DNA of 64,000 bases from Candidatus Woesearchaeota archaeon (GTDB lineage Archaea; Nanobdellota; Nanobdellia; Woesearchaeales; GCA-023898365), in assembly GCA_023898365.1 (NCBI GenBank), contig CP060219.1, positions 737,934-801,933 of the forward strand. Reading direction: 5' to 3'. Made by a program: the position numbers and the translations under genes. Below are positions 4,211-49,379 of this stretch, one piece after another; the stretch's first letter is position 1; each line of letters starts with the position of its first letter. Under the pieces are notes generated by a model that had not been told where the DNA came from, ran no database searches, and saw only the letters and a program-made list of their open reading frames with translations.

Positions 4211-6153
4211 GCATACGGTATGCTGCTTGAAAGCTCTCCAAGACGAATGTCATCGTAGAGTTCCCTGATTGCATCGTAAATCATCATCCGTTCTTCTTTG
4301 TTAAACGGTGTCGATTCAAAAGATTCTTTGATAGCCATGTAATCTTTTTTTGCTTCATCAAAATTCTTTTCTTCTATTTTCTTTTTACAGGCATCAATAA
4401 GGGTAAAGAACTTGCTATGCTTAAACTCCATTTGCTTGGTGAATTTATCTTGTTTTCCAAATGGGTTGACTTCATCAATTTCGTCAAGTTTTTTCTCAAT
4501 GTATTTATGGAACCCAACTGTTTCGATATTCTTGCGCATATCGTCCATCTTCTTTTCTGCTTCTTTGATATAATCAAGAATTTCTTGTTCCTTTGCAAGA
4601 CTGAGACGAACTTGTTCTTCACGTTTACGCATGGATGCGTCGTGTTCTTGTTTATGTTTTTCAAACAAATCAGTTTTCTTTTCAAGCTCTCCAAGTTTTT
4701 GCGTGTATGCGGCTTGAAGTGAACGCAAGCGATCAGATTCTTTTTTAATTTCAAGTTCTTGCGCTGCTTTGAGTCGTTTTAGTGAAAGTGTTCCTTGTGA
4801 AAGAATGCCTTCTTGTTTTTTGATGTGTGCTGCTAATGCTGCTTTTTCTTTTTGATATGCGCGTTCATCATTTTGTAGTTTTGCAAGTCTGACTTCATAT
4901 GCCGTTTTTGTTTCTTGCGCTTCTTTAACTTTTGCTAGCATTGCAAGTCTTTCTTGTTCAAGTCGTTTTTCTTTTGTTTGTATAAGTTTTTCTTGCGTTT
5001 CAAGTGTCGCCATTTTTGACCGCACTTCTTTTTCTTTTGCTTCAAGGTCTGCTAGTTGCCTTTGCTTAAGCGCTCTAAACTCTTTTTCTTGGCGATGGGT
5101 TAATTCTCTCGCATGTTCTTCTTGATGAATAGTCTTATGGAGTTGCGCAAGTTCTTTCTTGTACAGATCATCTCCTTTTTTCGCAAGTAGCGTCAAGTAC
5201 GCGTCAAGCTCAGCTTTGAACTTCTTTACCGCTTGCTTTTCGTCTGTGTGTTTAATGCGAGACAGAAGGAATGCTTCTAATTCTTTTTTGCTGGTAAGTG
5301 CTCGTGCAAACGTTGGCGCACTCGTTTTTTCTAAAATTTTTAATGCGTCTTGTAATGATTTCGCTATGGTGCCATCTTGTTTGGTGAAAAGATTCCTTAT
5401 CTTTGTTTCAGGAGTTATTGTTTTGAGCGCTGCAATTGATTTTTTGTTTTTTGCTTGCAACTCTTTAAATGGATTTGGCGGTGCTTTTAGTGTTGTATGT
5501 TTTTTCACTATTTTTTTCTTAGCTCCTTTTTTAACGGCAACTTTTTTCTTCGCCACCTTTTTTTTGAGTTGCGTTTTCTTAATCGCTTTTTTCACGGCAA
5601 CTTTCTTTTTCGCAACTTTTTTCTTAAGAGGAACTTTCTTTACTGCTTTCTTCTGAGGAGCACTCACAATCTTCTTTTTTGCAATGTTTACTTTGAGTGG
5701 TTTTTTCATAACCACTTTCTTGTTTGCTTTTGTCGCCTTTTTTATTGCAGGTGACGTTTTCTTTTTTGCATCAATCGGTTTTGCTTTTGCCGCTTCACGT
5801 AATTTATCTAGTTTTCCAGTCTTTATTGTTTTTCGTAACTTCGCAATTTCATTTGGTTCAGAAGATGCCTTTTCAAATGAGCGAGAAATACTTACTGGTT
5901 TTTTTTCAGGAAGTTCAAGGGCTTCGCGGAGTTCATCAATGCTGACATCCGCGTTTTTTCCTTTAAAGAGTTTGTTGAAGAGGCCTGCTTTTTTTTCAGG
6001 AGTTTTTGTAGCGGGTTCAGGAGCACCTTTCCAAAACGAAGAACTATCTGCTTTTGTGCTGCTTTTTTCTTTAGTTGCAGTCTTTTTTGGTGGCTCGGGG
6101 ACACCAATTGTTTTCGGCCTACTTGGTGGTCTAATTATGTTTTCCTCAACCAT
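4207..6153 (-). CDS. Lys-rich coiled-coil protein with histone-H1-like (V/A)KKK tandem repeats
   Basis: 648 aa; N-terminal ~180 aa low-complexity K/A/V tract with a 21-aa repeat, then long heptad-rich coiled coil; ATG at 6153. Confidence 0.6.
   Translation of the reverse strand: MVEENIIRPPSRPKTIGVPEPPKKTATKEKSSTKADSSSFWKGAPEPATKTPEKKAGLFNKLFKGKNADVSIDELREALELPEKKPVSISRSFEKASSEPNEIAKLRKTIKTGKLDKLREAAKAKPIDAKKKTSPAIKKATKANKKVVMKKPLKVNIAKKKIVSAPQKKAVKKVPLKKKVAKKKVAVKKAIKKTQLKKKVAKKKVAVKKGAKKKIVKKHTTLKAPPNPFKELQAKNKKSIAALKTITPETKIRNLFTKQDGTIAKSLQDALKILEKTSAPTFARALTSKKELEAFLLSRIKHTDEKQAVKKFKAELDAYLTLLAKKGDDLYKKELAQLHKTIHQEEHARELTHRQEKEFRALKQRQLADLEAKEKEVRSKMATLETQEKLIQTKEKRLEQERLAMLAKVKEAQETKTAYEVRLAKLQNDERAYQKEKAALAAHIKKQEGILSQGTLSLKRLKAAQELEIKKESDRLRSLQAAYTQKLGELEKKTDLFEKHKQEHDASMRKREEQVRLSLAKEQEILDYIKEAEKKMDDMRKNIETVGFHKYIEKKLDEIDEVNPFGKQDKFTKQMEFKHSKFFTLIDACKKKIEEKNFDEAKKDYMAIKESFESTPFNKEERMMIYDAIRELYDDIRLGELSSSIPYA
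5497..5650. repeat. Imperfect ~63-nt tandem coding repeat (two copies) inside the Lys-rich gene
   Basis: acggcaactttt(t)tcttcgc(c/a)ac(c)tttttt... repeated; encodes IKKTQLKKKVAKKKVAVKKA twice on the minus strand. Confidence 0.6.
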
Positions 6154-6258
6154 GAAACTCCCTCAGTTTAAAAGCAGCGTACCGAGTATAAAAACTTTGC
6201 GCTACTCCTTTCAAGAAATAACAATACCTTTAAATGTCTCTTTTCTTTGCAGATTTGA

Positions 6259-6588
6259 ATGGAAGAGCAACTTGATGCGTTCGCCGACCAAGTATCCAGT
6301 ATGGAGAAACGTTTGCTTGCGCTCGAAAAAACGATGATCACGCTTGATGAGCTCACGTTGTTTCGGGAGAGGTTTTCCATCCAAGAAGGAGCAAAACTTT
6401 CCTCGTCTCTTTCTTTGCTTCGAGACCATTCAACATCGCTGGGTATGAGTATTTCTCTTCTCTCATCAGAGTTTGACCAGATGAAATTGCTTTTGAAAAA
6501 CTGCGTGGTGCGAGAGCAATTTGACGTGCTTAAGAAAAAAGTAGAAGCAATTCCTTTTGAACAATTCGTTGTTCGCTCACTTTTATAA
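6259..6588 (+). CDS. Hypothetical coiled-coil protein
   Basis: 109 aa ORF with ATG, TATA-like gagtataaaaac ~60 bp upstream; no recognisable domain. Confidence 0.45.
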   Translation: MEEQLDAFADQVSSMEKRLLALEKTMITLDELTLFRERFSIQEGAKLSSSLSLLRDHSTSLGMSISLLSSEFDQMKLLLKNCVVREQFDVLKKKVEAIPFEQFVVRSLL

Positions 6589-6605
6589 TTTTTGAGGTTT
6601 ACTGT

Positions 6606-6917
6606 ATGGATACTGACCAGGAAAAAAAAATAGATCGCATCACTGAAGAAAAGCTCGCCAAGTATTTTGCAATTACTCGAGAAGCAATAGCCATGATTGA
6701 AGAAAAAGGGTTTGCCTCAGGAAAAGAAGATGACGCTCGCGAAGTGCTTTCTATGGCACAAAATTACCTTTCGGACGCCACTACCCATTTTTATCCAAAA
6801 CAAGACTTTGTCAACGCGTTTGCCGCCATAAATTACGCGCATGGTTGGCTTGACGCTGGAGCACGTTTAGGGCTCTTTTTAGTCCACGATTCTCGCCTAT
6901 TTACTGTTGATGATTGA
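6606..6917 (+). CDS. Conserved archaeal small protein (DUF357-like, inference)
   Basis: 103 aa; ...AINYAHGWLDAGARLG... motif; ATG start. Confidence 0.45.
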   Translation: MDTDQEKKIDRITEEKLAKYFAITREAIAMIEEKGFASGKEDDAREVLSMAQNYLSDATTHFYPKQDFVNAFAAINYAHGWLDAGARLGLFLVHDSRLFTVDD

Positions 6918-6995
6918 CTCATGCTCTGTTGACTTGTCTGATCTTACAATTCGAGAACAAATAATTATATAAATACCTGCAATAAAAATCCTTCC

Positions 6996-7190
6996 ATGCC
7001 TGAGAAAGATGAAAACGAAGAAGCATTCGATGAACTTGATTCTGAAGAAGTTCAAGAAGCACTTGTCGAAGACGATGAAATAGATGGTGCTGAAGAAGGG
7101 GTTATCCGCGGTTATTACGAAGAGAAGAAAAAGAAAAAGGATGACAAACCCTCAAAAGGCGACCAAATGTACGAAGAATCGTTCGGTTGA
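6996..7190 (+). CDS. Small highly acidic protein
   Basis: 64 aa, Glu/Asp-rich; TATA attatataaatacc ~25 bp upstream of ATG (leaderless). Confidence 0.45.
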   Translation: MPEKDENEEAFDELDSEEVQEALVEDDEIDGAEEGVIRGYYEEKKKKKDDKPSKGDQMYEESFG

Positions 7191-7227
7191 TAAGAAATTA
7201 TTTTTTCACTTCTTTTCTTTGCTTATG

Positions 7228-8343
7228 TTACAAAGGAGCTAAGTCTCCTGCTGGAAGATTCTGCACGTATTCTCTTGGTTTGTTCTGTGGTTGCCTGTGA
7301 GGTGGTATGTCTTTTGATAGTCCATCTCGCGCCATTCTATATTTTATGAGGTGGTGCGAGAGTTCCAATGGTCTTGCACTTCTAAGTGTATTTATGATGT
7401 ATCCTTCTCCTTTCTTTTGAAGCACGCTAGGTCCTGAATGATAGAGTGCGATAAGTGCCTCGTCAAACGGAAGTCCTTCCACTCGCGAGAGTTTTTTCCC
7501 ATAGATGTTCATGAGATCTCGTATGTGAAGAAGTCCAACATAGCTACCAACGTCCGCATCTTTCCAAATGGCACTGCTCTGACTTCTTACAAGGTTTCTT
7601 CCAGGAAAACGTGCTGCTAGTTCTCTTTTGTGTTTTGCAACGGTGTTGTTCCAGGTTCTTGGAATCATTTGACTGATACTTTTCGCATTAGATTTTGGTG
7701 ATGCTGCCGTGCTTGAGTACCCTGATTCGATGCCGATCATTCCAAGATAGCTTTCGAGAGTAAATAATTGCTGTTGTTCTGGTGTTAACACTTCTTGATA
7801 ATTGTGGGCGAGTATGTCGCGGTGTTTGACAAAGTTTCTGTGAATGTGGGCTACTTTTATCTTTGTTGCTAAGCTGTACATGCTACTGAAGGCAAACACG
7901 TCGACAAATGCGGGTTGTACATTGCGCGTAATGAGGTTGAGTTGTTCATCGAGTGTGAGTGCTTTCGTGAGTTCTTCAGGCGGGGTGGTAGGAGTTGCTT
8001 GTTCTGGAACGGGGTCATTTTTTTCTTGACTCCATTGTTTAAACTTATCTGCTATGTCGCTTCCTTTTTCTCGTAATCGTTCAAGAAAGCTTCTTTCTTC
8101 TTTGGTGAGTTGATTTGCGGGGGAAATTGTTTGGGCTGCGACATTGTGTTGTTGGAGAAATTGTTTCTCTACTTTCTCTGACCAAGAGCCTTCTCTTTGC
8201 GGATACACCGTAATAGAATAGAGTAGTGCTGCAGTGGTAACTGTGGCTAGACTATAGGTTGCAACTGCCGATCTTCGTATTCGCTCAACAATATCCATAA
8301 CTACTCCATAGTGATTAATGATTTTTAAACATTTCGCTTTCAA
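7228..8343 (-). CDS. Membrane-anchored lytic-transglycosylase-like (SLT domain) protein
   Basis: N-terminal TM (VATYSLATVTTAALLYSITVY); C-terminal IGIESGYSSTAASPKSNAKSISQMIP ... ALYHSGP fits SLT motifs E-S / GLMQ / AYNAG. Confidence 0.5.
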   Translation of the reverse strand: MKAKCLKIINHYGVVMDIVERIRRSAVATYSLATVTTAALLYSITVYPQREGSWSEKVEKQFLQQHNVAAQTISPANQLTKEERSFLERLREKGSDIADKFKQWSQEKNDPVPEQATPTTPPEELTKALTLDEQLNLITRNVQPAFVDVFAFSSMYSLATKIKVAHIHRNFVKHRDILAHNYQEVLTPEQQQLFTLESYLGMIGIESGYSSTAASPKSNAKSISQMIPRTWNNTVAKHKRELAARFPGRNLVRSQSSAIWKDADVGSYVGLLHIRDLMNIYGKKLSRVEGLPFDEALIALYHSGPSVLQKKGEGYIINTLRSARPLELSHHLIKYRMARDGLSKDIPPHRQPQNKPREYVQNLPAGDLAPL

Positions 8344-8384
8344 AATCGAAATCTTTATATTGGTATACTCTTCAGTATATTGGT

Positions 8385-8516
8385 ATGGATATCGAAATTG
8401 ATTGTGATCATCATCTTAACGGCTTTTGTTTAGATCCAGAAATCAGCATACCAGGGATCATAGCACAAGAATGCAACCATTGCAGAAAAGCACGATCCTG
8501 TAAACGACACAGATAA
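8385..8516 (+). CDS. Candidate small Cys/His-rich (zinc-finger-like) protein, 43 aa
   Basis: MDIEIDCDHHLNGFCLDPEISIPGIIAQECNHCRKARSCKRHR; ATG 25-30 bp downstream of tttatat; below track size cut-off. Confidence 0.3.
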   Translation: MDIEIDCDHHLNGFCLDPEISIPGIIAQECNHCRKARSCKRHR

Positions 8517-8523
8517 GAATTCT

Positions 8524-8820
8524 TTACAACGCCTTTCTCATTTCACTCATCAAAGAAGCAATTTTCTTACCTTTCTCTGTGAGCTTAAGCACCTTTAATC
8601 GTCCCGTCTTCTCAAAAGAGATAAGACCAAACGTTTCCATTTCCTTGAGAACTTTAACAACATGTGAATACGTGCAATCGACATTTTTAGCAAGAGAAGA
8701 TGCATAGGTTTCATTTGGTGAACTGAACAGCTCAATCAAAATCATTGCTGGCTTTTCACGGAAAAAAGTTGTGAATATCTTCTTATTGTCTTTCAAAATA
8801 TCTCCCCCCAAGGAAAACAA
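8524..8820 (-). CDS. Winged-helix transcriptional regulator (ArsR/TrmB-like)
   Basis: ...SSLAKNVDCTYSHVVKVLKEMETFGLISFEKTGRLKVLKLTEKGK helix-turn-helix + wing pattern; track start is TTG (8820); alternative ATG at 8745 gives 74 aa. Confidence 0.55.
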   Translation of the reverse strand: MFSLGGDILKDNKKIFTTFFREKPAMILIELFSSPNETYASSLAKNVDCTYSHVVKVLKEMETFGLISFEKTGRLKVLKLTEKGKKIASLMSEMRKAL

Positions 8821-8865
8821 ACGAGTAAAAATTAAAAAATTATTTCTCTTTATAATAGTTTCGAC

Positions 8866-9276
8866 TTACGCACCGAAGAGGCCCATATACGTCAATACAG
8901 CTCCGCCAACAGCGAACAAGTACGTGACGATGCTATTCACAAAATTAGGCAAGGAAAAGCCAATGATGCCCATAGTATGCAGTAAAGGAATGCCCCCAGC
9001 GATAACGAATACGAACCCAAGACCGAACGAAAGAATGGCTTCGGTACCGTGGAACTTTCCATTCTTTAAACCATCCCACACGAAGAGAAGAGCAGCAACA
9101 ACAAGCAAGATGTACGTGACCAAACCAGGCAAACTAGGTATTTTTACGGCGATCTTACCAAGGCCATCAGTGCCACTGCCAAGGATAGCAAGCACACTGT
9201 ACACTAACAAAATCAAACCCAAAATAACACTGATCCACTCATGTGGTGTATCAGCAAGACCTCTCTTATTTAACAT
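8866..9276 (-). CDS. Polytopic membrane protein (hypothetical)
   Basis: 136 aa, 4 hydrophobic helices; ATG at 9276; the + strand ORF 8771-9337 is antisense and rejected. Confidence 0.55.
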   Translation of the reverse strand: MLNKRGLADTPHEWISVILGLILLVYSVLAILGSGTDGLGKIAVKIPSLPGLVTYILLVVAALLFVWDGLKNGKFHGTEAILSFGLGFVFVIAGGIPLLHTMGIIGFSLPNFVNSIVTYLFAVGGAVLTYMGLFGA

Positions 9277-9304
9277 AGTACTTCACCCCTCGAATAAAAA
9301 TGAA

Positions 9305-12300
9305 TTAGTCGAACTTGCCGTTGCGAAAGCGCATTGACCGAGCACGCTCAATAACATCCATTGGGTTGCCGCGAAGCTTTTTCTGCAACGCAGGACCAAT
9401 GTTTGACATGCCAATATGATCAGCACCTTGATAGCCATTAAGCATTTTTGTAATGACCGTAAACAAATATTTTGCAAGATTGTTAAAGTTTTGAATCGTT
9501 CCACCGTTTGCAACATTTTGCAATCCCTTCCTGATGGCCTCGTACAATCCGTACGCGTTGCCAAGATTTCTAAATAATGGTTGTCCTTTAGGAGACTTAG
9601 TTTGCAAGAATGCATCAACAAGAATAGCCCATTCAACAAGACTTGCTTTCGAAGTATCATCGAAAACAAACGATGCCTTTTGCATCTCGCGAAGCTTAGG
9701 TAAGATATCGTTTGCAAACGAAACAAATTCTTTTGGACCAACAAGAACTTCCGCAACGCCTTCTTCAGGAGGCTGAACTAGTTGTTCAAGAGGACTTGGA
9801 GGATGTTTTTCATCATCAGATGAAACCTCCTTACCCTCTCCAAGCTGCTTTACTTCTTGATGTTCCAGACGATGAACTTCCATGGCATACAACAAAATGA
9901 TGCTTATTTGAATCGTTTCAATCCAGAGCAATGTCACAGGTAATGATTCTACTATGTCAAGCAAAATAACAATTCTTTGTTGAGGATCTTGTTCATTTTG
10001 AAGACGTGCAAGACTTCTTTTTGAGGCAGAAAACATCTGCTGAGCCTCTTCTCGCGCTTCCTCGCCATACAAAGGTGATGTTGCGATAAGTTCAAGAACC
10101 CGCTGCAATTGGGTTTCCATATGGATTATACCATGAATAGTATTTTCAGCAAGCAAGCCTCCTTGTATTTGTGAGACAATCTGTTCCAAAGCAGTTCTTG
10201 TGTTTGCAATAAGTTGAGGTGAAAAGACTCTTTCGACTTCCTCTTTTCGCGTTACTAATGCGTTTTTGTCCAAACGTGCTTCAGGAAGTAGAAGAATTTG
10301 TCGTTCAAGCATGCCAAGTTGCAATCCAACACTTGTCGCAACATCTATAAATGCTCTGAGTTGCTTCGCTTTTCTCTTAGAAACCCACGTACGAACTGCT
10401 TCTTCTGTGTTTGCTGGTTTAAGCAAATTATTACTCTGCTTGATGATTTCCTTTGTTTTACCAGGAGGAAGAAGAAGTATGTCACTTGGACCTTCAGGAA
10501 GCAATAAACTTCCTTGAGATCTTAGCAAGAAGATTTGTTTAATGATACGAGGTAATGTTTTGAAGAATTCTGTGTTTTTTATTACTGTTTCAAGAGGGTC
10601 TTCCAGCACAACAAGAGCAGTACTCCTTAACTCTTCCGTAAGTTTTTCTTCTTGCTTGTTTTTTTCTTCAAGAAATTTTTCATACTCTTCAAGCCACTCT
10701 AAGATTTTATCAGCAAGCTCAAGAGCCTTTGTCTCAATTTCTTCAACTAAGGCACTCCACGTTAAGGTGGTTAAGAACTCGTGTTGTTCTCTTAGAGTCT
10801 TCTTTGCCGCATCATCCAGTTTAGAAAATTCAAAGACGAGTTGCAATCGTTCCTTTAATGAATTGCTACCTTCTTGAAGGAACTGTTTAAACAATGCAGC
10901 AGAACTATCTCTGTCCGCGTAGAAGCTCGATCTTTCTCGTTCATCAACGCTACCTTCTCGCACATCAAACCGAGAAATTTCTTTTCCGTACCGATCAACT
11001 AACACTTGTGCTTGCTTAAAAATTGCAAAACAGGTATAGAGCGCATCTTGGTTTAACCAACCAACAGTAGAATCCGCACCTTCAGTTTCTTTTGCTTTTT
11101 CAGAGAATTTCTTAACTAATTTCCTCCATAACTCAACGCGTTTAATGATTTGCGAAAGTGATTTTCCTTCAAGTTTATTTACTTCTTGAGACGAGCGAAC
11201 AAATTCTTTGAACTTTCTTTTGTCAATCTTTACTTTCTTAGGATCTTCTTTCTTTTTCTCGTTAAGCGCTTTTTTGATATGGTAACTAAGTGCTGTTATA
11301 GCTCTTCGTATCATAACAAGTCCTTCTTGGTGATCGATTATCTCGCCATAATGTGTTCTTGCCTGAATGATGAGTTCCTCTGCACTATCAATATCTTGCG
11401 CTTCAAGGAATGATGTTATTTTTGGAAGAAGATCTTGTTCGATGATGTTTCTTTGAGTCAATTGAACGTGTTCATATGTTTCAAGAACTGGTCCTATTTG
11501 TTGTTCTAATTCTTCAAGTTCTTCTTTCCAGGATTGGTATCTGCCATCCATTCGTGAGGGGTTGTCTTCAGGAATTTTTTCAAGCTGCTTTTGAACTGCA
11601 TTTAATTTCTCTGGAAGCGTACGCCAGTATTTTCCAAGTTCTCCAATCTTGTGAAGAATTATATTAATTTTATTAAGTAAATCTTCCTCTTTATTTATAG
11701 TATCGGGATCATCTGATGGGTTAGGTTCAGGAGGGGGTATAGGATCAGGATCTTGTTTTATTTTGTCAAGGATTTCTCTGAGTTGTGTTCGAATTTTTTC
11801 AAGCTCCTCATCCATCTTTGTTTTATGAGCTTCGTATTCATTTTTTAATTGTTTAACCTTATCATCAAGTGCTCGAACTGCTGCTTGTTGTTCTTCGCTT
11901 TTTTGTTCTAGAAGTTTTTTTATGCGTTCTTCCTGGGCGTCAACATATGCTTTTCCTTTTCGAGTAAGCTCTCCAATCGCATCATAAAGAGCTTTTTTGT
12001 ATACTGCTTGTAATTTGCGCAATGCATTTTTTTGCTTTTGGAGTTCTTCTTGCAAAGAAGTATTACTTTGTGCAATTGCATCTCGTAATTTTTCTTCAAG
12101 CGAAGCAAGTGCTTCCTGCATTTCTTGTTGCATGCGTTCTCGTTCACTTTGCATATCTTGTGTGAGTTCAAAGATTTTGTAATATAATTCTCTTCGGGTT
12201 AACTCTAACTCTGCTTTGAGTTCTTCAATCAGTTTTCTTAATTCTTCATTTTCTTCAGGAGTGCCACCGCCTTCTTGGAGTTTCTTGATAAGATCTTCTA

Positions 12301-12544
12301 ATTCCTTTATTTTTCTTTCATACACTTGAAGTTTATCAGCTAAGTCTTTATTTTGCTTTTCGAGACGATCGATAATATCTTGCCATTTCTTATCGTCTTC
12401 TGAGGAAGGAATTTTACCGCCGCCAGATCTCCAAGACTTGAATCCGCTGAAAATCGCCCAAATGATAAGGATGAAGAAAGATGTTTCTAAGAATGAGAGA
12501 ACGCCTTGAAAGATATTGATAAAAGTGATGCCGAATGTTGCCAT
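9305..12544 (-). CDS. Giant N-terminally membrane-anchored coiled-coil protein (1079 aa)
   Basis: N-terminal TM (FFILIIWAIFSGF) then >900 aa of heptad-rich E/K/L coiled coil and a Pro-rich linker; ATG 12544. Confidence 0.65.
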   Translation of the reverse strand: MATFGITFINIFQGVLSFLETSFFILIIWAIFSGFKSWRSGGGKIPSSEDDKKWQDIIDRLEKQNKDLADKLQVYERKIKELEDLIKKLQEGGGTPEENEELRKLIEELKAELELTRRELYYKIFELTQDMQSERERMQQEMQEALASLEEKLRDAIAQSNTSLQEELQKQKNALRKLQAVYKKALYDAIGELTRKGKAYVDAQEERIKKLLEQKSEEQQAAVRALDDKVKQLKNEYEAHKTKMDEELEKIRTQLREILDKIKQDPDPIPPPEPNPSDDPDTINKEEDLLNKINIILHKIGELGKYWRTLPEKLNAVQKQLEKIPEDNPSRMDGRYQSWKEELEELEQQIGPVLETYEHVQLTQRNIIEQDLLPKITSFLEAQDIDSAEELIIQARTHYGEIIDHQEGLVMIRRAITALSYHIKKALNEKKKEDPKKVKIDKRKFKEFVRSSQEVNKLEGKSLSQIIKRVELWRKLVKKFSEKAKETEGADSTVGWLNQDALYTCFAIFKQAQVLVDRYGKEISRFDVREGSVDERERSSFYADRDSSAALFKQFLQEGSNSLKERLQLVFEFSKLDDAAKKTLREQHEFLTTLTWSALVEEIETKALELADKILEWLEEYEKFLEEKNKQEEKLTEELRSTALVVLEDPLETVIKNTEFFKTLPRIIKQIFLLRSQGSLLLPEGPSDILLLPPGKTKEIIKQSNNLLKPANTEEAVRTWVSKRKAKQLRAFIDVATSVGLQLGMLERQILLLPEARLDKNALVTRKEEVERVFSPQLIANTRTALEQIVSQIQGGLLAENTIHGIIHMETQLQRVLELIATSPLYGEEAREEAQQMFSASKRSLARLQNEQDPQQRIVILLDIVESLPVTLLWIETIQISIILLYAMEVHRLEHQEVKQLGEGKEVSSDDEKHPPSPLEQLVQPPEEGVAEVLVGPKEFVSFANDILPKLREMQKASFVFDDTSKASLVEWAILVDAFLQTKSPKGQPLFRNLGNAYGLYEAIRKGLQNVANGGTIQNFNNLAKYLFTVITKMLNGYQGADHIGMSNIGPALQKKLRGNPMDVIERARSMRFRNGKFD

Positions 12545-12548
12545 TTCT

Positions 12549-13247
12549 TTAAACTCCTCCTAGGAACCCTTCAATGAGAGTAGTTGCAAACATGTCAAGG
12601 AAGTAGATAAAAATTAATCCTGCTATAACAACGAGAAGGCGCATGAACATAAGATAAAACGGATTTTGATTTTCAGTGGGAAGTTCCCTGAAGAAATAAT
12701 GAAACACCCCCCATGCGACGCCAAAAACTCCTGCCATAAGTATGATTAAGAACGGTAACAAACCTGCAAGAAAAACCGTTTGTACGGGCATAAGAACTGC
12801 TGTCATGAGCGCAAGAACAGCAGCAATGCCTCTTGCTTGTTTTTCTTTGCCTTGACCGAACAATTTAGTTGCGCCTAGTTCAAAGAGAAAGTACGTGAGA
12901 ACGAACAAGATAAGTCTAATGATGCCTTCTTTTGCTCGAGGATTTTGGAGCAATTCTCGAAGACTAAACACTTCACCAATACGAACAAACATTTTATCGG
13001 CAACACCAATGCCGCCACTATAATAACCGTAGTCGTTTTTTTGATAGTAGAAAAAGTTCGACGGATAGAAAACGACCGAGCTGGTTCCTTGCTCGTTGAC
13101 GTTCATCGTATCAGCATGAATATTAATTGTTGTTTCTTCATCTCCTAAGCCAACGACTCCTTGAAGCGAGAATACGAAGAAAAAGATCAATAGTGCGCTA
13201 ACCGCTAATAACACCACACGGTTTCCTTTCATCAAGCAAGAATGCAT
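12549..13247 (-). CDS. Membrane protein with signal peptide (hypothetical), cotranscribed with the giant coiled-coil gene
   Basis: 232 aa; N-terminal signal/TM, several C-terminal TM helices; 4-nt gap to downstream gene. Confidence 0.55.
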   Translation of the reverse strand: MHSCLMKGNRVVLLAVSALLIFFFVFSLQGVVGLGDEETTINIHADTMNVNEQGTSSVVFYPSNFFYYQKNDYGYYSGGIGVADKMFVRIGEVFSLRELLQNPRAKEGIIRLILFVLTYFLFELGATKLFGQGKEKQARGIAAVLALMTAVLMPVQTVFLAGLLPFLIILMAGVFGVAWGVFHYFFRELPTENQNPFYLMFMRLLVVIAGLIFIYFLDMFATTLIEGFLGGV

Positions 13248-13317: not shown

Positions 13318-13464
13318 AGCCCCATAGTGTAGCGGCCAATCATAGCGGACTCTGGCAACTGGTTACGCCCGTTGATGACAAGGAGCGACATTCCGCTTCG
13401 CTCCAGTCCCTCGGTTTTTCGTTGGAGACATCCGTTGACCCCGGTTCGAATCCGGGTGGGGCTA
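13318..13464 (+). tRNA. tRNA-Gln (anticodon CUG) with ~74-nt intron at canonical 37/38 position (intron 13356-13429)
   Basis: Acceptor AGCCCCA/TGGGGCT, discriminator A; D-loop GUAGCGGCCAAUC; anticodon stem GCGGA/TCCGT with loop CUCUGG|intron|A; T-arm CCCGG-TTCGAAT-CCGGG; intron ends CAAC...GTTG can pair; no encoded CCA. Confidence 0.6.
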
Positions 13465-13495: not shown

Positions 13496-14032
13496 ATGAA
13501 GCGAAAGATAATTCTTAATTTGGCTATGAGTTTGGATGGCTTTATTGCTGATTCGAATGGTGGCTTTGATTGGATTACGGGTGATGGCAAGAATTCTCTT
13601 GATACGAAGGACCAATTTGATTTTCCTGCATTCCTTGATGCTGTTGATGTTATTGTTATGGGTAAACGGTCATTTTTAGATTGTCCTAAAGAAACATTGG
13701 ATTCTTTTAAAGATAAGATGGTGTTCGTTGCTTCTAACGAGCCTTTCGAAACAGAACGTTCTTATGTGGTGCGTATTCAAGGCGATCTTGTCAAGCAAAT
13801 CACTGCGCTTCAACAGCAAAAAGGAAAACATATTTGGCTCTTTGGCGGGGCTGGTTTAACTGACGCTTTCATTAAGGCGAATGTTATCGATGAATACATC
13901 TTGGGTTTTATCCCTATACTTCTGGGGAATGGACGTCCTTTGTTTTTAGAGAATAATCCAACAGTACTGTTGCATCTAGAAGAAATAACTTCTCAAGAAG
14001 GTATTGTTGTTTTGAGATATGTAAGAAGATGA
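13496..14032 (+). CDS. RibD C-terminal domain / dihydrofolate-reductase-like family protein
   Basis: MKRKIILNLAMSLDGFIA...VDVIVMGKRSF...IWLFGGAGL matches RibD_C/DHFR-like fold; track start 13481 is TTG, ATG at 13496. Confidence 0.7.
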   Translation: MKRKIILNLAMSLDGFIADSNGGFDWITGDGKNSLDTKDQFDFPAFLDAVDVIVMGKRSFLDCPKETLDSFKDKMVFVASNEPFETERSYVVRIQGDLVKQITALQQQKGKHIWLFGGAGLTDAFIKANVIDEYILGFIPILLGNGRPLFLENNPTVLLHLEEITSQEGIVVLRYVRR

Positions 14033-14226
14033 TTGTTTTGATAGTGTGGTTGTGGTGCGTATTTATCCGATTAAATGTTTTAGTTGGTTTTTATTAGTGT
14101 GTTTCTAATGATGTCCTCGGAGAACAATGGTTAAAATATAGGTGTTCTGTCGCCACAATGTATTTAAAGAATGGCGAAAGTAGCACTACTTGGAACGCTA
14201 CATGTGTTCTTTTTTTCATTAAATAT

Positions 14227-14258
14227 CCACATATAGTGTTTTAATTCACTATATGTGG
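14227..14258. promoter_or_regulatory. Perfect 12-bp inverted repeat (CCACATATAGTG-N8-CACTATATGTGG) flanking the TATA-like spacer TTTTAATT upstream of nrdR
   Basis: Arms 14227-14238 and 14247-14258 are exact reverse complements; the spacer sits ~25 bp upstream of nrdR ATG (14269), so the IR brackets the putative TATA box. Confidence 0.55.
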
Positions 14259-14268
14259 GGGTGTGTGT

Positions 14269-14721
14269 ATGAGGTGTCCGTTTTGCGAAAGCGATGATAT
14301 TAAGGTTCTGGAGACGCGTGAGAGCGAAGATAATAAAACGCGAAGACGCAGAGAATGTTTGCGCTGCGCAAAACGATTTACCACCGAAGAACAAGTTATC
14401 AATGCGACCATGTTTGTGCAAAAAAAAGATGGTCGCCGAGAAGAATTTTCTCGCGAAAAACTTCTCAAAGGGGTTCTGATTGCTACAGGAAAACGCCCCA
14501 TTCCTCATGAAAAAATCATTCATCTTATTGAAGACACCGAAGCTCGTCTTCGCGAACTTAAAATTTCTGAAGTACCGAGTAAGCGTATTGGTCAAGAAGT
14601 GATTAAACGTCTCAAAAAACTTGACAAAATTGCGTATATTCGTTTTGCATCCGTCTATAAAGAATTAGACGTTGATGATCTTGAGAAAGAATTGGATAAA
14701 CTACGAGGAAAAGAACAATGA
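14269..14721 (+). CDS. nrdR: Transcriptional repressor NrdR (zinc ribbon + ATP-cone)
   Basis: MRCPFCESDDIKVLETRESEDNKTRRRRECLRCAKRFTTEE + ATP-cone (VQKKDGRREEFSREKLLKGV...); ATG at 14269 (track start 14263 is GTG); stop overlaps nrdJ start (ATGA). Confidence 0.9.
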   Translation: MRCPFCESDDIKVLETRESEDNKTRRRRECLRCAKRFTTEEQVINATMFVQKKDGRREEFSREKLLKGVLIATGKRPIPHEKIIHLIEDTEARLRELKISEVPSKRIGQEVIKRLKKLDKIAYIRFASVYKELDVDDLEKELDKLRGKEQ

Positions 14722-17700
14722 GCGGCATGACAGTTAAACGCATGTTTACCGAGAGCGGGAAAGACCCGCTTGGCACACTAACATTTGTAAAGGCAACAAG
14801 CGCCATTCGTGACCAGACAGGCAAAGAAATCTTCAAGAAAGAAAATGTCGAAGTACCTGACACGTGGTCGCAAGTCGCCATTGATATTCTCGCACAAAAG
14901 TATTTTCGCAAACAAGGCGTTCCCCAACGAGACGAACAGGGAAAGCCCCTGCTCAAAGATGGCAAGCCCATTCTTGGCAGTGAATCCAGCATGAAACAAG
15001 TTGCGCATCGTATGGCTTATACGTGGCGATATTGGGGGGAAAAACATGGATACTTTGCCTCTCCCGAAGATGCGCAAACTTTTTATGATGAAATGCTCTA
15101 TGTGCTTTCAAACCAAATTGCCGTTCCTAATTCTCCGCAATGGTTTAATACAGGATTAAATGCAGTTTATGGTATAACTCGTCCACCGCAAGGACATTAC
15201 TATGTTGAACCAGAATCAGGCGAAGTAAAACTTTCGGAAGATGCGTACACGCATCCACAACCTCATGCATGTTTTATTCAATCAGTAAAGGACGATTTAG
15301 TCAATGAAGGAGGAATTTTTGATCTCTTAACGCGAGAAGCACGTGTCTTCAAATATGGTAGTGGTTCCGGAACAAACTTTTCTTCTCTTCGTGGAGAAAC
15401 AGAACCGCTTTCTGGCGGAGGAAAATCAAGCGGCTTAATGTCCTTTTTGAAAGTCTTTGACGCAAGTGCTGGTGCCATCAAAAGCGGAGGCACAACACGG
15501 CGCGCTGCAAAAATGGTCACGCTTGATATTGATCATCCAGAAATTGAAAACTTTATCGAATGGAAAGCGCGAGAAGAAAAGAAGGTTGCCATGCTCGTTG
15601 CAGGAAGTCACGCGGTCAAGAACCTACTTGATGATGTCATGCGAATTGCTTACGAAACAAAATCAACCTCACTCAAAGAAAACGAACGTTTGAAACGAGC
15701 AGTCTTACAAGCGCTTAAAGCAAACGTTTCCCCAAACTATGTGCAGCGCGCACTCTATCTTGTCGAACAAGGCTATAAGTCGATGGACTTGTTTTATCTC
15801 ACCTCAGAATTTGAAAGCGAAGCCTATCAGACGGTTTCAGGTCAGAATTCAAACAATTCTGTCATGGTCACGAATGATTTTCTGAAGGCAGTTGAACAGG
15901 ACGAATCTTGGAAACTTATTCGAAGAACTGATGGCTCGGTGTGCAAAGTTATTCCTGCAAGAGACTTGTGGCAAAAAATCGCACTTGCTGCTTGGCACTC
16001 AGCTGATCCAGGCATCCAATTTCGTGACACCCTTAACGAATGGCATACTTGTCCAAATGATGGACCGATCAATGGATCAAATCCTTGCAGCGAGTATGTA
16101 TTCTTAGATGACACTGCGTGCAATTTGGCATCAATAAATTTGATGAAATTTTACGACGGCAAACAATTCAATGTTGATGCATTTCGTCACACCGTCAGAC
16201 TCATGACTGTTGTGCTCGAAATATCTGTGCTGATGGCACAATTTGCAAGTAAGGAACTCGCAAGGAAGAGTTTTGATTTTCGCACGCTCGGACTTGGCTT
16301 TGCAAACCTTGGCACTCTCCTGATGGTTCAAGGAATTCCGTATGATTCCACAAAAGGCCGATCATTTGCAGGAGCAATAGCGGCAATTATGACGGGAACA
16401 GCGTACGCGACAAGCGCAGCCCTAGCAGCACATCTCGGGCCCTTCCCTCGCTATTCGCAAAACAAGGATTCTATGCTTCGTGTTATTCGCAACCACCGAC
16501 GTGCAGCATACGATGATCCTGATGAATCCTATGAAGAGCTTACTATTACTCCCCAAGGTTTGCACCATGAAGAACTTGATAAGGCTCTTTCTGTTGCGGC
16601 AAAAAAATCTTGGGATGAAGCGCTCCAACTTGGAGAAAAATATGGTTATCGAAATGCACAGACCACGCTTATTGCACCAACGGGCACTATTGGTCTTGTG
16701 ATGGATTGTGACACGACAGGTGTTGAGCCAGACTTTGCCTTGGTGAAATTTAAGAAGCTTGCTGGCGGCGGCTATTTCAAAATTATTAATCAGAGCGTTC
16801 CTCGAGCACTTCAACACCTTGGCTATTCGTCTGAACAAATTCAAGACATTGAAAAGTATGCAACTGGTCATGGGACGATGAAGGGTTGTCCGCATATTAA
16901 TGAAACCACGTTAAGTGAGAAGGGCGTTCCAAAACCGGTTATCAAAAATATTGAAGCACAACTGAAAAACACGTTCGATATAAATTTTGTTTTTAACAAA
17001 TTCACCCTTGGTGAAGAGGTGTGTATTGATCTTGGTTTTACTAAAGATCAACTTGCTGACCCTTCATTAAAGATGCTTGAAGCGCTTGGCTTTTCTCGAA
17101 AAGAAGTAGCGCAAGCAAATGAATACATTTGTGGCTCGATGACCATCGAAGGGGCGCCTCATCTCAAGGAAGAACATTACGCTGTTTTTGACACGGCAAA
17201 TAAATGCGGCAAGAAAGGAACGCGCTTTATCAGTTATCTTGGTCATATCAAGATGATGGGTGCGGTGCAACCATTTTTGAGCGGCTCAATTAGCAAGACC
17301 ATCAACATGGAAAAAGAAGCTTCTATTTCTGATGTAAAAGAAGCGTACTTGACCAGTTGGAAACAAATGATTAAGGCAATTGCGTTGTATCGCGATGGTT
17401 CAAAATTAAGTCAACCACTGAATACGTCAAGTGAAGATGATGAAGAATTACTCTATCTTTTGGATGCTGCAAAGCAAATGCCCGACATTCCCGAACCCGA
17501 AGAAAAAATGGTATTTGCCTCAAAGCAGAAAATGCCAAAGCGACGAGGTGGTTTTGTTCAGGAAGCGGTTGTTGGTGGTCAGAAAATATTTTTGCGAACA
17601 GGAGAATATCCTGATGGTCGCTTGGGAGAAATTTTCATTGACACCTATAAAGAAGGCGCATCTTACGGCGCGCTCCTTAATTGCTTTGCGATAGCAATTT

Positions 17701-18101
17701 CGAAAGCATTGCAACATGGCGTTCCGTTAGAAGAATTTGTTGATGCCTTTACGTTTACTCGCTTTGAACCTGCAGGTGCGGTGCTTGGCCATGACGCGAT
17801 TAAACAGGCCACTTCGATTCTCGACTATGTCTTTCGTGTGCTTGGTTATGAGTATTTAGGACGCAAAGACTTCGTTCATGTGAAGTCAATGGAAACTGCT
17901 GATAAGAAGGAAAAACTTGCCGAGGAAAAACGTGAACTTCCTTCTGAAAAACAGATTCGCATTACTGACACAAAGGTTTTTGAAGCAAGAGCTAAAGGGT
18001 ATACGGGAGAACAATGCACGCAGTGCGGTAGTATGCGCGTCAAACAAAACGGCTCGTGTAGTTTATGTGAAGATTGCGGTACGACAACAGGTTGCAGTTA
18101 A
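14718..18101 (+). CDS. nrdJ: Class II adenosylcobalamin-dependent ribonucleotide reductase, long (~1100 aa) NrdJ type
   Basis: 1127 aa; N-term ...VEVPDTWSQVAIDILAQKYFRK..., C-terminal Cys-rich tail CTQCGSMRVKQNGSCSLCEDCG; no HN[CST] intein signature seen. Confidence 0.9.
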   Translation: MSGMTVKRMFTESGKDPLGTLTFVKATSAIRDQTGKEIFKKENVEVPDTWSQVAIDILAQKYFRKQGVPQRDEQGKPLLKDGKPILGSESSMKQVAHRMAYTWRYWGEKHGYFASPEDAQTFYDEMLYVLSNQIAVPNSPQWFNTGLNAVYGITRPPQGHYYVEPESGEVKLSEDAYTHPQPHACFIQSVKDDLVNEGGIFDLLTREARVFKYGSGSGTNFSSLRGETEPLSGGGKSSGLMSFLKVFDASAGAIKSGGTTRRAAKMVTLDIDHPEIENFIEWKAREEKKVAMLVAGSHAVKNLLDDVMRIAYETKSTSLKENERLKRAVLQALKANVSPNYVQRALYLVEQGYKSMDLFYLTSEFESEAYQTVSGQNSNNSVMVTNDFLKAVEQDESWKLIRRTDGSVCKVIPARDLWQKIALAAWHSADPGIQFRDTLNEWHTCPNDGPINGSNPCSEYVFLDDTACNLASINLMKFYDGKQFNVDAFRHTVRLMTVVLEISVLMAQFASKELARKSFDFRTLGLGFANLGTLLMVQGIPYDSTKGRSFAGAIAAIMTGTAYATSAALAAHLGPFPRYSQNKDSMLRVIRNHRRAAYDDPDESYEELTITPQGLHHEELDKALSVAAKKSWDEALQLGEKYGYRNAQTTLIAPTGTIGLVMDCDTTGVEPDFALVKFKKLAGGGYFKIINQSVPRALQHLGYSSEQIQDIEKYATGHGTMKGCPHINETTLSEKGVPKPVIKNIEAQLKNTFDINFVFNKFTLGEEVCIDLGFTKDQLADPSLKMLEALGFSRKEVAQANEYICGSMTIEGAPHLKEEHYAVFDTANKCGKKGTRFISYLGHIKMMGAVQPFLSGSISKTINMEKEASISDVKEAYLTSWKQMIKAIALYRDGSKLSQPLNTSSEDDEELLYLLDAAKQMPDIPEPEEKMVFASKQKMPKRRGGFVQEAVVGGQKIFLRTGEYPDGRLGEIFIDTYKEGASYGALLNCFAIAISKALQHGVPLEEFVDAFTFTRFEPAGAVLGHDAIKQATSILDYVFRVLGYEYLGRKDFVHVKSMETADKKEKLAEEKRELPSEKQIRITDTKVFEARAKGYTGEQCTQCGSMRVKQNGSCSLCEDCGTTTGCS

Positions 18102-18105
18102 ACCC

Positions 18106-18609
18106 ATGAGAATCACAACAAAGACCGGAGATAAAGGAGTAACGTCCACTGTTGGTGGCGAGCGCATTGAAAAAAGCCATCTCTATATCGAAGTTGCAGG
18201 TGTTATTGACGAAGTGGTAACGGTAATAGGGTTTGCACGATCGCTGCAACGGGACGAGGCAGTCAAAGATCGTTTGGAAAACATTCAGCGCGTTTGTTTT
18301 TCTTTGCTTCCTGCTCTTGATCAAGACCACGCTGCTACTTTTCCTTCGAAGGCGCTTGAAGAACTTGAACAAGAAATGGAACTTCTTGAGAAAAGGCGAT
18401 TGGTAAACGATTGGTTGATAACGGGCGCTACGCCCGACGCTGCAGCATTGGGCCTCGCACGCACAGCAACTCGTCGCCTCGAACGAGAACTCTCGCGGTT
18501 CGACAAGCACGTCTATGCGGTTGATGCGACCGTTAAAGCCTTCGTGAATCGCCTCTCCGACTACTTTTGGCTTTTAGAATCCCATCACTTTCCTTCGCAA
18601 CAAAAATGA
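18106..18609 (+). CDS. pduO: ATP:cob(I)alamin adenosyltransferase, PduO type
   Basis: MRITTKTGDKGVTSTVGGERIEKSHLYIEVAGVIDE... canonical PduO-type N-terminus; ATG at 18106, 5 nt after nrdJ stop. Confidence 0.85.
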   Translation: MRITTKTGDKGVTSTVGGERIEKSHLYIEVAGVIDEVVTVIGFARSLQRDEAVKDRLENIQRVCFSLLPALDQDHAATFPSKALEELEQEMELLEKRRLVNDWLITGATPDAAALGLARTATRRLERELSRFDKHVYAVDATVKAFVNRLSDYFWLLESHHFPSQQK

Positions 18610-18619
18610 TTTTGTATGT

Positions 18620-18730
18620 TCAGGCTTGCTCATCCCATTCGTTGAAAAGCATATAGTCAATAAATGCTCTTTCCGTTTCTTGTAAAAAATCCTCTCTTTC
18701 AAGAATGTTGCTCGTTATATATCCTCTCAT
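18620..18730 (-). CDS. Candidate small acidic protein (36 aa) with strong Shine-Dalgarno, immediately downstream of the previous small ORF
   Basis: AAGGGGGAGAAATT-ATG; MRGYITSNILEREDFLQETERAFIDYMLFNEWDEQA. Confidence 0.35.
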   Translation of the reverse strand: MRGYITSNILEREDFLQETERAFIDYMLFNEWDEQA

Positions 18731-18744
18731 AATTTCTCCCCCTT

Positions 18745-18885
18745 TCAGATAAGTTGAATTTCTTCAAAGTACGCTTTCATTAGTTCATGTCTGTTTAATC
18801 CTAAGTCGCGCTCGATAGTGAGTAAAACGTCCTCGAATGGCATTTCATCACCTGCAACGAGCAAACCCAGTTCGTTTATGTACAT
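18745..18885 (-). CDS. Candidate small acidic protein (46 aa) with strong Shine-Dalgarno
   Basis: GGGGGTGATCGTCA-ATG; MYINELGLLVAGDEMPFEDVLLTIERDLGLNRHELMKAYFEEIQLI; not in track (<60 aa). Confidence 0.35.
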   Translation of the reverse strand: MYINELGLLVAGDEMPFEDVLLTIERDLGLNRHELMKAYFEEIQLI

Positions 18886-19016
18886 TGACGATCACCCCCC
18901 AATTTGATCTATTTCAGTTGTGATATTCGCTGATAAATACTTTCTCAATATAGAAATAAAACAAATTATGTGGTATATTCTAAATATTTATAAGTATGAA
19001 AGCATATACTTTTTGT

Positions 19017-19982
19017 ATGGAATATCGAAAGCTCATCAAATTCGGGAAAAACAGTTTTGTTATCTCTCTTCCTAAATCTTGGATTGAAAAAAACCATTTG
19101 AAAAAATCAGACCTTCTCTACCTAGCAGTTGAAAGTGACCAACTGGTTATTACGCCAGAACCAAAGACTGGAATGAATGAAGAACGAGAATTATCTGTTG
19201 ATGTCGATCGAGTAGTTCCAGGATCGTTGCGTCGTCGATTAAAAAGTTCTTATATTGATAATTATCATGTCATTACTTTTTTTGGAAAAACAATTCCTCA
19301 ACAAGCAGATCATATTCGAGAAGAAGTTAATGATCTAATGGCACTTGAAATTGTTGAACAAACACCAACGAAAATTGTTGCAAAGAATTATTTGAACATG
19401 AATGAGATTTCGTTATCTGAAACCTTGCGAAAAGTTGACAATATCTTGCGATATGAATTTGTAATTCTTAAAAATATTCTAACTAAAAAAATTGAGGGAA
19501 CAAAGGAAGATGTTATCAAAGAAGCCTATCGCATGGATGGAGATATTAATCGCCTCATGTTTCTCTTACTTCGCACGGTAAAGTTTTTAAGCAACACGGC
19601 AGAAATTAGCAGAGGAAAAAATGTCATCAACAATGAAGACTTGTTACGTATTTGGATGCTGATTAGTGTACTTGAAAAAATTGGTGACGAACTAAAGCGA
19701 CTCATAAAAAAACTCATTTCTGCTAAACAACTCGTAAAGGAAAAAGACCTATTGTTTATTGTAGATCAGATTGAAGATGCGTTCAAGCAAGCAATGAAGA
19801 GCTTTTATTTGAAAGATGTCGAACTCGCCTTTAAAGTTTCAGAAGATAATAAAGTGCGATTGAAAAAACTCATTCTTGATTTTTTAGAAAAAAACACTTC
19901 AAATGTTTTTGTTGCTTCAATGAGGGAAAATTTTGTCAATCTCTATTATAATATTGTCGAAATTCCTCGTCTACAATATTAG
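19017..19982 (+). CDS. AbrB/SpoVT-domain + PhoU-like regulator (archaeal PhoU-family)
   Basis: MEYRKLIKFGKNSFVISLPKSWIEKNHL swapped-hairpin N-terminus followed by helical PhoU-like repeats; TATA atatttataa ~25 bp upstream of ATG 19017 (leaderless); track start 18996. Confidence 0.65.
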   Translation: MEYRKLIKFGKNSFVISLPKSWIEKNHLKKSDLLYLAVESDQLVITPEPKTGMNEERELSVDVDRVVPGSLRRRLKSSYIDNYHVITFFGKTIPQQADHIREEVNDLMALEIVEQTPTKIVAKNYLNMNEISLSETLRKVDNILRYEFVILKNILTKKIEGTKEDVIKEAYRMDGDINRLMFLLLRTVKFLSNTAEISRGKNVINNEDLLRIWMLISVLEKIGDELKRLIKKLISAKQLVKEKDLLFIVDQIEDAFKQAMKSFYLKDVELAFKVSEDNKVRLKKLILDFLEKNTSNVFVASMRENFVNLYYNIVEIPRLQY

Positions 19983-45595: not shown

Positions 45596-45656
45596 GTTTC
45601 TTAACTGGTCACGTCGATTCGTAAGGTTTATAATATCTGTTTGTTTTATTGGATGT

Positions 45657-49367: not shown

Positions 49368-49379
49368 CACTATATAGTG
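49368..49379. promoter_or_regulatory. Perfect palindrome CACTATATAGTG between a TATA-like element (aaattatttaaac) and the ATG at 49382
   Basis: Same CAC-(A/T)5-GTG motif as the two arms of the nrdR upstream inverted repeat. Confidence 0.4.

Follow-up and report, generated by a model that had tools for sequence, protein, structure and literature searches.

Is a set of bacterial-looking nucleotide genes in a small archaeal genome a recent import, or does it belong to the host? The question is raised by a locus at positions 13496 to 18609 of a 64-kb stretch of DNA (the window; positions 737,934 to 801,933 of contig CP060219.1) from the 1.13-Mb metagenome-assembled genome (MAG) of a Candidatus Woesearchaeota archaeon, a member of the DPANN archaea. 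The locus holds a gene with a RibD_C fold, the repressor gene nrdR, the gene nrdJ for a class II ribonucleotide reductase (RNR) and the gene pduO for a predicted cobalamin adenosyltransferase. A preliminary description had taken the four genes for a bacterial module acquired by horizontal transfer. Our analysis points to a resident operon for the supply of deoxyribonucleoside triphosphates (dNTPs), a reading that we regard as likely. The best explanation is that the nrdR-nrdJ pair was inherited within the Woesearchaeota and that pduO and the first gene, for a YyaP-like reductase, are lineage-specific neighbours.

Layout of the locus

The four genes named in the preliminary description are all present on the forward strand, with essentially unchanged limits. 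Together with the adjoining tRNA gene and the control elements the features are:

13318-13464, forward strand: tRNA-Gln(CUG), detected by ARAGORN with introns allowed
13496-14032, forward strand: RibD_C-fold gene, YyaP-like, 178 residues (Pfam RibD_C, E-value 1.8e-22)
14217-14225, forward strand: candidate archaeal TATA element CATTAAATA, read from the sequence, abutting NrdR box A
14224-14239, forward strand: NrdR box A, TATCCACATATAGTGT, with 6/6 conserved positions
14246-14261, forward strand: NrdR box B, TCACTATATGTGGGGG, with 6/6 conserved positions
14269-14721, forward strand: nrdR, 150 residues (Pfam Zn_ribbon_NrdR and ATP-cone; TIGR00244)
14718-18101, forward strand: nrdJ, class II, 1127 residues (Pfam; NF005736; PDB 7b9p)
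18015-18098, forward strand: Cys-rich C-terminal tail of NrdJ, with Cys columns invariant in 21 DPANN relatives
18106-18609, forward strand: pduO, predicted PduO-type ATP:cob(I)alamin adenosyltransferase, 167 residues (Pfam Cob_adeno_trans, E-value 7.9e-35; TIGR00636)

The TGA of nrdR and the ATG of nrdJ overlap by 4 nt as ATGA, as had been noted before, and the ATG of pduO follows the TAA of nrdJ closely, after a gap of 4 nt. Judged by this spacing, the proposed co-expression of the B12-activating enzyme with its client reductase is very probable. The NCBI annotation starts NrdJ three codons further in, which gives 1124 residues. The proteins of the block are 100% identical to the database entries USN45131-45133 and USN46048, NrdJ being USN46048.1.

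On both flanks the window carries archaeal or DPANN-type genes, including those for RNA polymerase subunit E'/Rpo7, TYW3, CDC48, a KaiC/RadA-like ATPase and HerA. The tRNA-Gln(CUG) gene contains an intron of 74 nt at the canonical position 37/38, an archaeal hallmark. The gene looks unannotated; it was seen only when introns were searched for and was missed by default ARAGORN and by the Rfam gathering search.

The reductase and its relatives

NrdJ consists of the Pfam domains Ribonuc_red_2_N (PF08471), the barrel (PF02867) and TSCPD (PF12637). It scored 1762 bits with NF005736 (cut-off 1737) and 591 bits with TIGR02504 (cut-off 400), is of the long PRK07562 type and was aligned to PDB 7b9p over residues 4-903 with 1130 bits. 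The protein has no ATP-cone and no intein. Its tail contains the cysteines C1100, C1103, C1114, C1117, C1120 and C1126 in a CxxC...CxxCxxC...C pattern, all invariant in the 21 DPANN relatives, and would by its sequence be a zinc-finger and redox-shuttle motif. The tail had been read as a mark of Actinobacteria, Chloroflexi and Deinococcus. Its presence was confirmed, but it does not single out these groups, since a Cys-rich C-terminal domain occurs in the majority of class II RNRs (PMC5704485). Many DPANN homologues of NrdJ reach 1500-1900 residues because of one or two inteins that contain LAGLIDADG homing endonucleases (PF14528, PF14890); examples are P0007, P0020, P0024, P0026, P0048, P0050, P0059, P0075, P0105 and P0117.

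After NrdJ itself, the best matches came from Woesearchaeota, Micrarchaeota and Diapherotrites with 61-66% identity, followed by Ignavibacteria, Kapabacteria and Bacteroidota with 59-61%. In unrooted neighbour-joining trees the split between Woesearchaeota plus Micrarchaeota on one side and Ignavibacteria, Bacteroidota and Kapabacteria on the other was recovered in all 300 bootstraps, and the window protein stood on the DPANN side. It was placed with the Woesearchaeota set in 190/300 bootstraps. Rooting on an outgroup of 38% identity gave an unstable tree, in which the Woesearchaeota were monophyletic in 34 of 200 rooted replicates, and the unrooted splits were therefore relied on.

The gene order in relatives was obtained from two sources. 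A single-protein scan of the genome collection with NrdJ returned two bacterial loci only, and the context was then taken from exact-protein look-ups; a metagenome scan for long NrdJ loci with a 21-sequence alignment provided 80 loci that were examined. In four other Woesearchaeota loci (L003, L004/L005, L007 and L008) nrdR lies immediately upstream of nrdJ among archaeal neighbours, with the genes for methionyl-tRNA synthetase (MetRS) and MJ1341_C upstream and a UvrD/RQC helicase gene downstream. Among the 80 metagenomic loci nrdR was found beside nrdJ once, on the same Woesearchaeota contig as L005. Because of these four loci and the single case in 80, the nrdR-nrdJ pair is a trait of Woesearchaeota rather than of the bacteria with the most similar NrdJ. 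The search for the same block in related archaeal genomes, which had been suggested, thus recovered the pair in the four loci, but neither pduO nor the RibD_C-fold gene. One of the 80 loci, L035, has a PduO gene at the end of its contig (11310-11831, forward strand), at a distance of about 2.7 kb from nrdJ on the downstream side; a RibD_C-fold gene was present in 0 of 80.

NrdR had been called a bacterial regulator. This does not hold: NrdR is reported from 22% of archaeal genomes and 77% of bacterial ones (PMC13584703), and among the best matches are many homologues from Woesearchaeota and Micrarchaeota, the identities being 50-61%. On DPANN-like contigs nrdR was also found beside a gene for a short class II RNR (L011) and beside nrdDG (L012). 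At L012 the genes nrdR, nrdD and nrdG form an operon at 6001-9289 with DPANN-like neighbours, a 4-nt overlap of nrdR and nrdD and a single clear NrdR box upstream (ACACTATCCATAGTGT). NrdR is therefore not tied to one RNR class in small-genome lineages.

Composition of the block

By eye the block had appeared richer in G and C than its surroundings. This is weakly true. Its GC content is 0.429 against 0.411 for the window, a difference of only 1.7 points. This corresponds to +1.65 standard deviations (SD) of 5.1-kb windows and lies within the top 3% of these, below the window maximum of 0.438. The GC content at third codon positions (GC3) is 0.307 for the RibD_C-fold gene, 0.298 for nrdR, 0.372 for nrdJ and 0.435 for pduO; the 46 other open reading frames (ORFs) have 0.356 +/- 0.051. 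The codon-usage distance of nrdJ to the rest of the window is 0.194, among the lowest in the window. The tetranucleotide distance of the block is 0.158 compared with 0.154 +/- 0.025, and its dinucleotide distance equals the mean. The windowed GC and codon-usage comparison that had been proposed therefore revealed no discontinuity: GC3, codon and oligonucleotide signatures are average, and pduO alone is a mild outlier. The composition of the block is native to the host window.

The upstream gene is not ribD

The first gene had been interpreted as part of a classical bacterial nrdR-ribD synteny. An identity as RibD was rejected, as the protein fails the NCBIfam models for the RibD C-terminal region (TIGR00227, 37.2 bits with a cut-off of 150), eubacterial RibD (TIGR00326, 25.8 with a cut-off of 156) and the archaeal reductase (TIGR01508, 20.8 with a cut-off of 186) alike. 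A deaminase domain is not part of it. The best solved structures were 3jtw, termed 'dihydrofolate reductase', and 2gd9, which is YyaP; 2xw7 was matched as well. NCBI names the product a dihydrofolate reductase (DHFR) family protein. On this evidence the gene is assigned to the YyaP/DHFR-family reductases and not to ribD, and a function as an alternative dihydrofolate reductase in the synthesis of thymidine monophosphate (dTMP) is conceivable.

The gap of 236 bp between this gene and nrdR holds the promoter region of nrdR itself, and the gene is absent beside nrdR in the related Woesearchaeota loci and in the 80 metagenomic long-NrdJ loci. With an identity other than ribD, a promoter region between it and nrdR and no counterpart in the relatives' loci, the gene does not represent the bacterial arrangement. 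It resembles the nrdR-ribD(-ribE-nusB) synteny in that a RibD_C-fold gene adjoins nrdR, but the order is reversed, no deaminase domain is present, and the protein is of the 'DHFR family' type of YyaP and Rv2671. The gene is probably transcribed on its own, and whether it belongs to the module is doubtful. It starts 31 nt after the tRNA-Gln gene and may be expressed by read-through from the tRNA gene or from a promoter inside it.

A divergent PduO

With TIGR00636 the PduO protein scored 109.2 bits, barely above the cut-off of 108.45. The N-terminal ATP motif T-K-x-G-D-x-G-x-T is present as ITTKTGDKGVT, which includes TKTGDKG, and 24 of 28 positions conserved in the family are kept. The changes are L to C64, F to W103, P to T106 and R to S159. 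Exhaustive HMMER searching of 1.84 billion representatives collected 7118 family members, and the best match other than the protein itself had 44% identity. A word-indexed search for relatives gave 12 weak matches only. As no relative exceeds 44% identity, neither a donor nor a sister lineage can be named. The protein appears to be a highly divergent, orphan-like member of the family that has retained the catalytic signature, and adenosyltransferase activity is predicted.

PduO-type enzymes have long been known in archaea. Matches in the PDB included the archaeal PH0671, TA0546 and ST1454 with E-values of 2e-16 to 6e-11. These share the single-domain Cob_adeno_trans fold and the N-terminal TKTGDKG motif with the window protein, which is a distant match to them and whose gene is translationally coupled to nrdJ. 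The Rfam gathering search of the window detected no B12 riboswitch or other RNA element, and no gene for the B12 transporter ECF-CbrT (energy-coupling factor type) or another B12 transporter was found here.

Resident operon or import

Several observations weigh against a resident operon. The window NrdJ is nearly equidistant from its relatives, with 63.9% identity to Woesearchaeota, 63.2% to Micrarchaeota and 62.6% to bacteria of the Fibrobacterota-Chlorobiota-Bacteroidota (FCB) group. The tree of the 150-residue NrdR is star-like with the window sequence on a long basal branch and has no bearing on the origin. The window lacks the MetRS, MJ1341_C and UvrD/RQC neighbourhood of the other Woesearchaeota, so the locus has been rearranged. 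Finally, pduO has a GC content of 0.484, the highest of any gene in the window and +2.8 SD, with a GC3 of +1.5 SD; the excess comes mostly from the first and second codon positions. With the highest GC and no close relative, pduO may have a separate, later origin. The preliminary description had itself named archaeal phylogenies and an even composition as arguing against a transfer. These were found for NrdJ and for the composition, but not for the other two proteins, given the star-like tree of NrdR and the lack of a close relative of PduO.

An ancient transfer between the domains could have brought the long NrdJ, and possibly NrdR, from bacteria into an early DPANN ancestor, or from DPANN into FCB bacteria, followed by vertical descent. 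We rate this as somewhat short of an even chance. The NrdJ proteins of DPANN and of Ignavibacteria, Bacteroidota and Kapabacteria are each other's nearest neighbours with 59-66% identity, RNR genes are notorious for crossing between domains (PMC3019208), and NrdR is the commoner in bacteria. Direction and timing, however, are left unsettled by the unstable rooting, and the presence of DPANN nrdR genes beside long class II, short class II and class III RNR genes suggests long residence and not the arrival of one cassette. Such a transfer concerns the ultimate origin of the genes and is compatible with a resident operon in the present host.

A recent acquisition of the whole RibD_C-nrdR-nrdJ-pduO block from a bacterium as one mobile cassette is very improbable, and the horizontal acquisition first proposed is not borne out. 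The GC content in the top 3%, the tRNA gene directly upstream, which is a classic integration site, and the missing synteny would fit it, and an nrdR together with an RNR gene has moved from bacteria into Halobacteria (PMC3019208). Yet NrdJ is on the archaeal side of the fully supported split, and codon usage and oligonucleotide signature are average. A tRNA-linked island was also rejected: copies of the tRNA-Gln 3' end and flanking repeats were sought in the window and none was found, so that no direct repeat marks an attachment site, and no integrase domain was detected among the window ORFs scanned with domain models. The closest bacterial NrdJ loci among the 80 have no nrdR, pduO or RibD_C alongside, the first gene is not ribD and is set apart by a promoter region, and no donor-like relative of PduO above 44% identity exists in the representatives searched.

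The least credible reading is bacterial contamination or a chimeric join at the block, since the block's bacterial-sounding annotations and its source in a MAG are opposed by the intron-bearing archaeal tRNA 31 nt away, by DPANN-type or archaeal genes on both sides, by the uniform composition, by the large DPANN contigs on which the nearest NrdJ homologues themselves sit, and by the 100% identity of 15.2 kb (the block and 10 kb downstream) in the Logan assembly of run SRR12358676, which possibly derives from the same reads as the MAG and is weaker than an independent sample.

With a resident operon as the likely reading, the locus serves as a corrective, because genes of bacterial appearance need not be recent arrivals when they occur in a DPANN genome. 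It also suggests that the RNR regulon is well established in the biology of the Woesearchaeota.

NrdR and its putative operator

The NrdR protein scored 150.3 bits with TIGR00244 (cut-off 124.65) and was aligned over its full length to the solved NrdR structures 9fzf, 9fvr and 7p37. The zinc ribbon has CxxC at 3-6 and 31-34 and RRRR at 25-28 (MRCPFC...RRRRECLRC; Pfam Zn_ribbon_NrdR, E-value 1.7e-15). The ATP-cone follows in the C-terminal part (Pfam, E-value 1.2e-16).

The conserved positions of an NrdR box are C4, A6, A8, T9, T11 and G13 (PMC13584703). Boxes A and B are 22 bp apart from start to start with a 6-bp spacer, and box B ends 7 nt before the ATG of nrdR. As a pair they make up an inverted repeat that is perfect over 12 bp, CCACATATAGTG-N8-CACTATATGTGG. 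The core motif has 10 matches in the 64 kb, where 18.7 are expected by chance, and two of the 10 are upstream of nrdR. The two boxes are the sole 6/6 pair in the window and are placed where the promoter of an autoregulated nrdR would be. The element CATTAAATA is a candidate for the archaeal TATA; an alternative TATA-like element, TATTTAAAG, was read from the sequence at about 14160-14168.

The promoter plan was compared in the Woesearchaeota loci L003, L004, L007 and L008, the archaeal locus L011 and the Micrarchaeota locus L006. In these relatives a TATA resembling TTTATAAA is followed after about 20-28 nt (about 27 nt in the Woesearchaeota loci) by box 1, a 16-bp spacer and box 2, and by this layout the boxes cover the expected start site. 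The arrangement fits repression by blocking the recruitment of RNA polymerase at an archaeal promoter.

The spacing in the window deviates from this plan and is a point against control of the operon by NrdR. Spacers of 15-17 and 24-27 bp, which put the box centres three or four helical turns apart, work; E. coli reporters lost repression when the spacer was 13 bp or less, and the in vitro tests included none below 12 bp (PMC12051234). With its offset of 22 bp and spacer of 6 bp the window pair falls outside both ranges. The six related archaeal promoters all have a box offset of 32 bp. In the 80 further NrdJ loci the offsets of box pairs peak at 31-33 bp (37 pairs), with a minor group at 41-42 bp, and an offset of 22 bp occurred in two cases only, both with weak boxes. 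On a matrix derived from the relatives' boxes, boxes A and B scored 6.6 and 8.0 bits, and those boxes themselves scored 8.7-21. A canonical partner box was sought at +/-31-33 or +/-42 bp from A and B; just a 5-of-6 site at 14195 was present, with an offset of 29 bp to box A.

We consider it unlikely, but a possibility to be taken seriously, that the closely set boxes fail to work as an NrdR operator and reflect decayed regulation, the inverted repeat of another factor or an RNA hairpin in the 5' leader. The spacer outside all spacings shown to work, the offsets in the related loci and the moderate box scores favour this. The six matching positions in both boxes, their uniqueness in 64 kb at the expected promoter site and the intact nrdR with all zinc-ribbon and ATP-cone features speak against it, as does the fact that 22 bp is about two helical turns, which puts both boxes on the same face of the DNA in keeping with the integer-turn rule (PMC12051234).

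It is a rather remote prospect that the operator was remodelled to two perfect boxes two helical turns apart, overlapping the likely TATA or start site, so that NrdR, if the operator works, would bind DNA in a different geometry. This would be other than the three-turn, doubly kinked U-turn complex of Streptomyces and E. coli. One possibility would be a tetramer bridging nearly straight DNA, as 22 bp measure about 75 A and the DNA-binding sites of the tetramer are roughly 80 A apart. If true, a near-universal repressor would here bind DNA in a new mode, on an archaeal promoter. In either case the 6-bp spacing offers a natural test case for the rule of integer helical turns and for a bacterial-type repressor on an archaeal TATA promoter.

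Another perfect 12-bp palindrome, CACTATATAGTG, was observed at 49368-49379 on the forward strand. It lies 2 nt before the ATG of a 505-residue ORF (49382-50899) with no Pfam match, and a TATA-like element, TTATTTAAAC, is located upstream of it. The half-site CACTATA is shared by this palindrome and the NrdR boxes, but the distance from C to G is 7 and not 9, so that the palindrome falls 2 bp short of the box register, and it is unpaired. It was rejected as an NrdR box and kept out of the regulon.

Proposed function of the operon

One promoter upstream of nrdR would give rise to a single, translationally coupled nrdR-nrdJ-pduO transcript. NrdJ is expected to reduce ribonucleotides with adenosylcobalamin (AdoCbl), its Cys-rich tail shuttling reducing equivalents into the active site, and PduO would adenosylate cob(I)alamin, presumably obtained by salvage, to provide AdoCbl for NrdJ. 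The ATP-cone of NrdR would sense dATP and ATP. At high dATP the repressor may bind both boxes at or next to the TATA and start-site region and shut off its own operon; with ATP only it would release the DNA, by analogy with nrdRJ of S. coelicolor (PMC9110341). Control by NrdR would thereby replace the allosteric ATP-cone that the window NrdJ lacks.

Other observations in the window

Two small ORFs of 36 and 46 residues, at 18620-18730 and 18745-18885 on the reverse strand, are convergent to pduO. The Logan assembly includes gene calls for the two, which have no family assignment; they may be a small two-gene module or nothing. They precede a gene of the AbrB/MazE type at 18996-19982 (forward strand) for a 328-residue fusion of an AbrB/MazE/SpoVT-type DNA-binding domain and a PhoU-like region, which has a GC content of 0.327, the lowest of the window genes. 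On the other side of the locus, a 232-residue membrane protein is encoded at 12549-13247 on the reverse strand, and 4 nt downstream of it starts the gene for a 1079-residue protein (9305-12544, reverse strand) that is rich in coiled coils, has a membrane segment at its N-terminus and matches no family convincingly. The two resemble a typical 'dark' DPANN pair of surface or cytoskeletal proteins. Further downstream in the window, an 880-residue PIN-PhoH fusion (42953-45595, forward strand) is followed by a 962-residue S8 subtilase ORF (45498-48386, forward strand); from its listed start this ORF shares about 100 nt with the fusion gene.

Comparison with known systems

The other Woesearchaeota loci (L003, L004/L005, L007 and L008) have the same nrdR-nrdJ order, NrdJ proteins of 62-65% identity and NrdR boxes downstream of an archaeal TATA. 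They differ from the window in the 32-bp box offset, in long leaders in which box 2 ends 33-162 nt before the ATG, in the MetRS/MJ1341_C and UvrD/RQC neighbours and in having neither pduO nor the RibD_C-fold gene.

In Streptomyces coelicolor nrdRJ, nrdR is likewise located directly upstream of the class II nrdJ and is co-transcribed with it. Two 16-bp NrdR boxes lie in the promoter, and the repressor is built of a zinc ribbon and an ATP-cone that senses dATP and ATP (PMC9110341). The window operon differs in its archaeal host with a promoter of the TATA/BRE (factor B recognition element) type, in boxes that are 6 bp and not 15-16 bp apart and in the appended PduO. In addition, an adjoining nrdR is lacking at the nrdJ loci of the nearest bacterial relatives of its subtype.

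The linkage of nrdJ and pduO is known from the nrdJ-cbrS-cbrT-pduO cluster of the presumed B12 auxotroph Lactobacillus delbrueckii (PMC5997447), in which an AdoCbl-dependent reductase is clustered with PduO, as in the window. The window differs from it in its archaeal host and its predicted control by NrdR; genes for ECF-CbrT or another B12 transporter were not found, nor was a B12 riboswitch. By this analogy, the coupling of a B12-activating enzyme to its client reductase would follow a logic already known from L. delbrueckii. The locus would illustrate in compact form the dNTP supply of a reduced archaeal symbiont, with a B12-dependent reductase, the enzyme that activates its cofactor on the same transcript and a nucleotide-sensing repressor in place of allosteric control.

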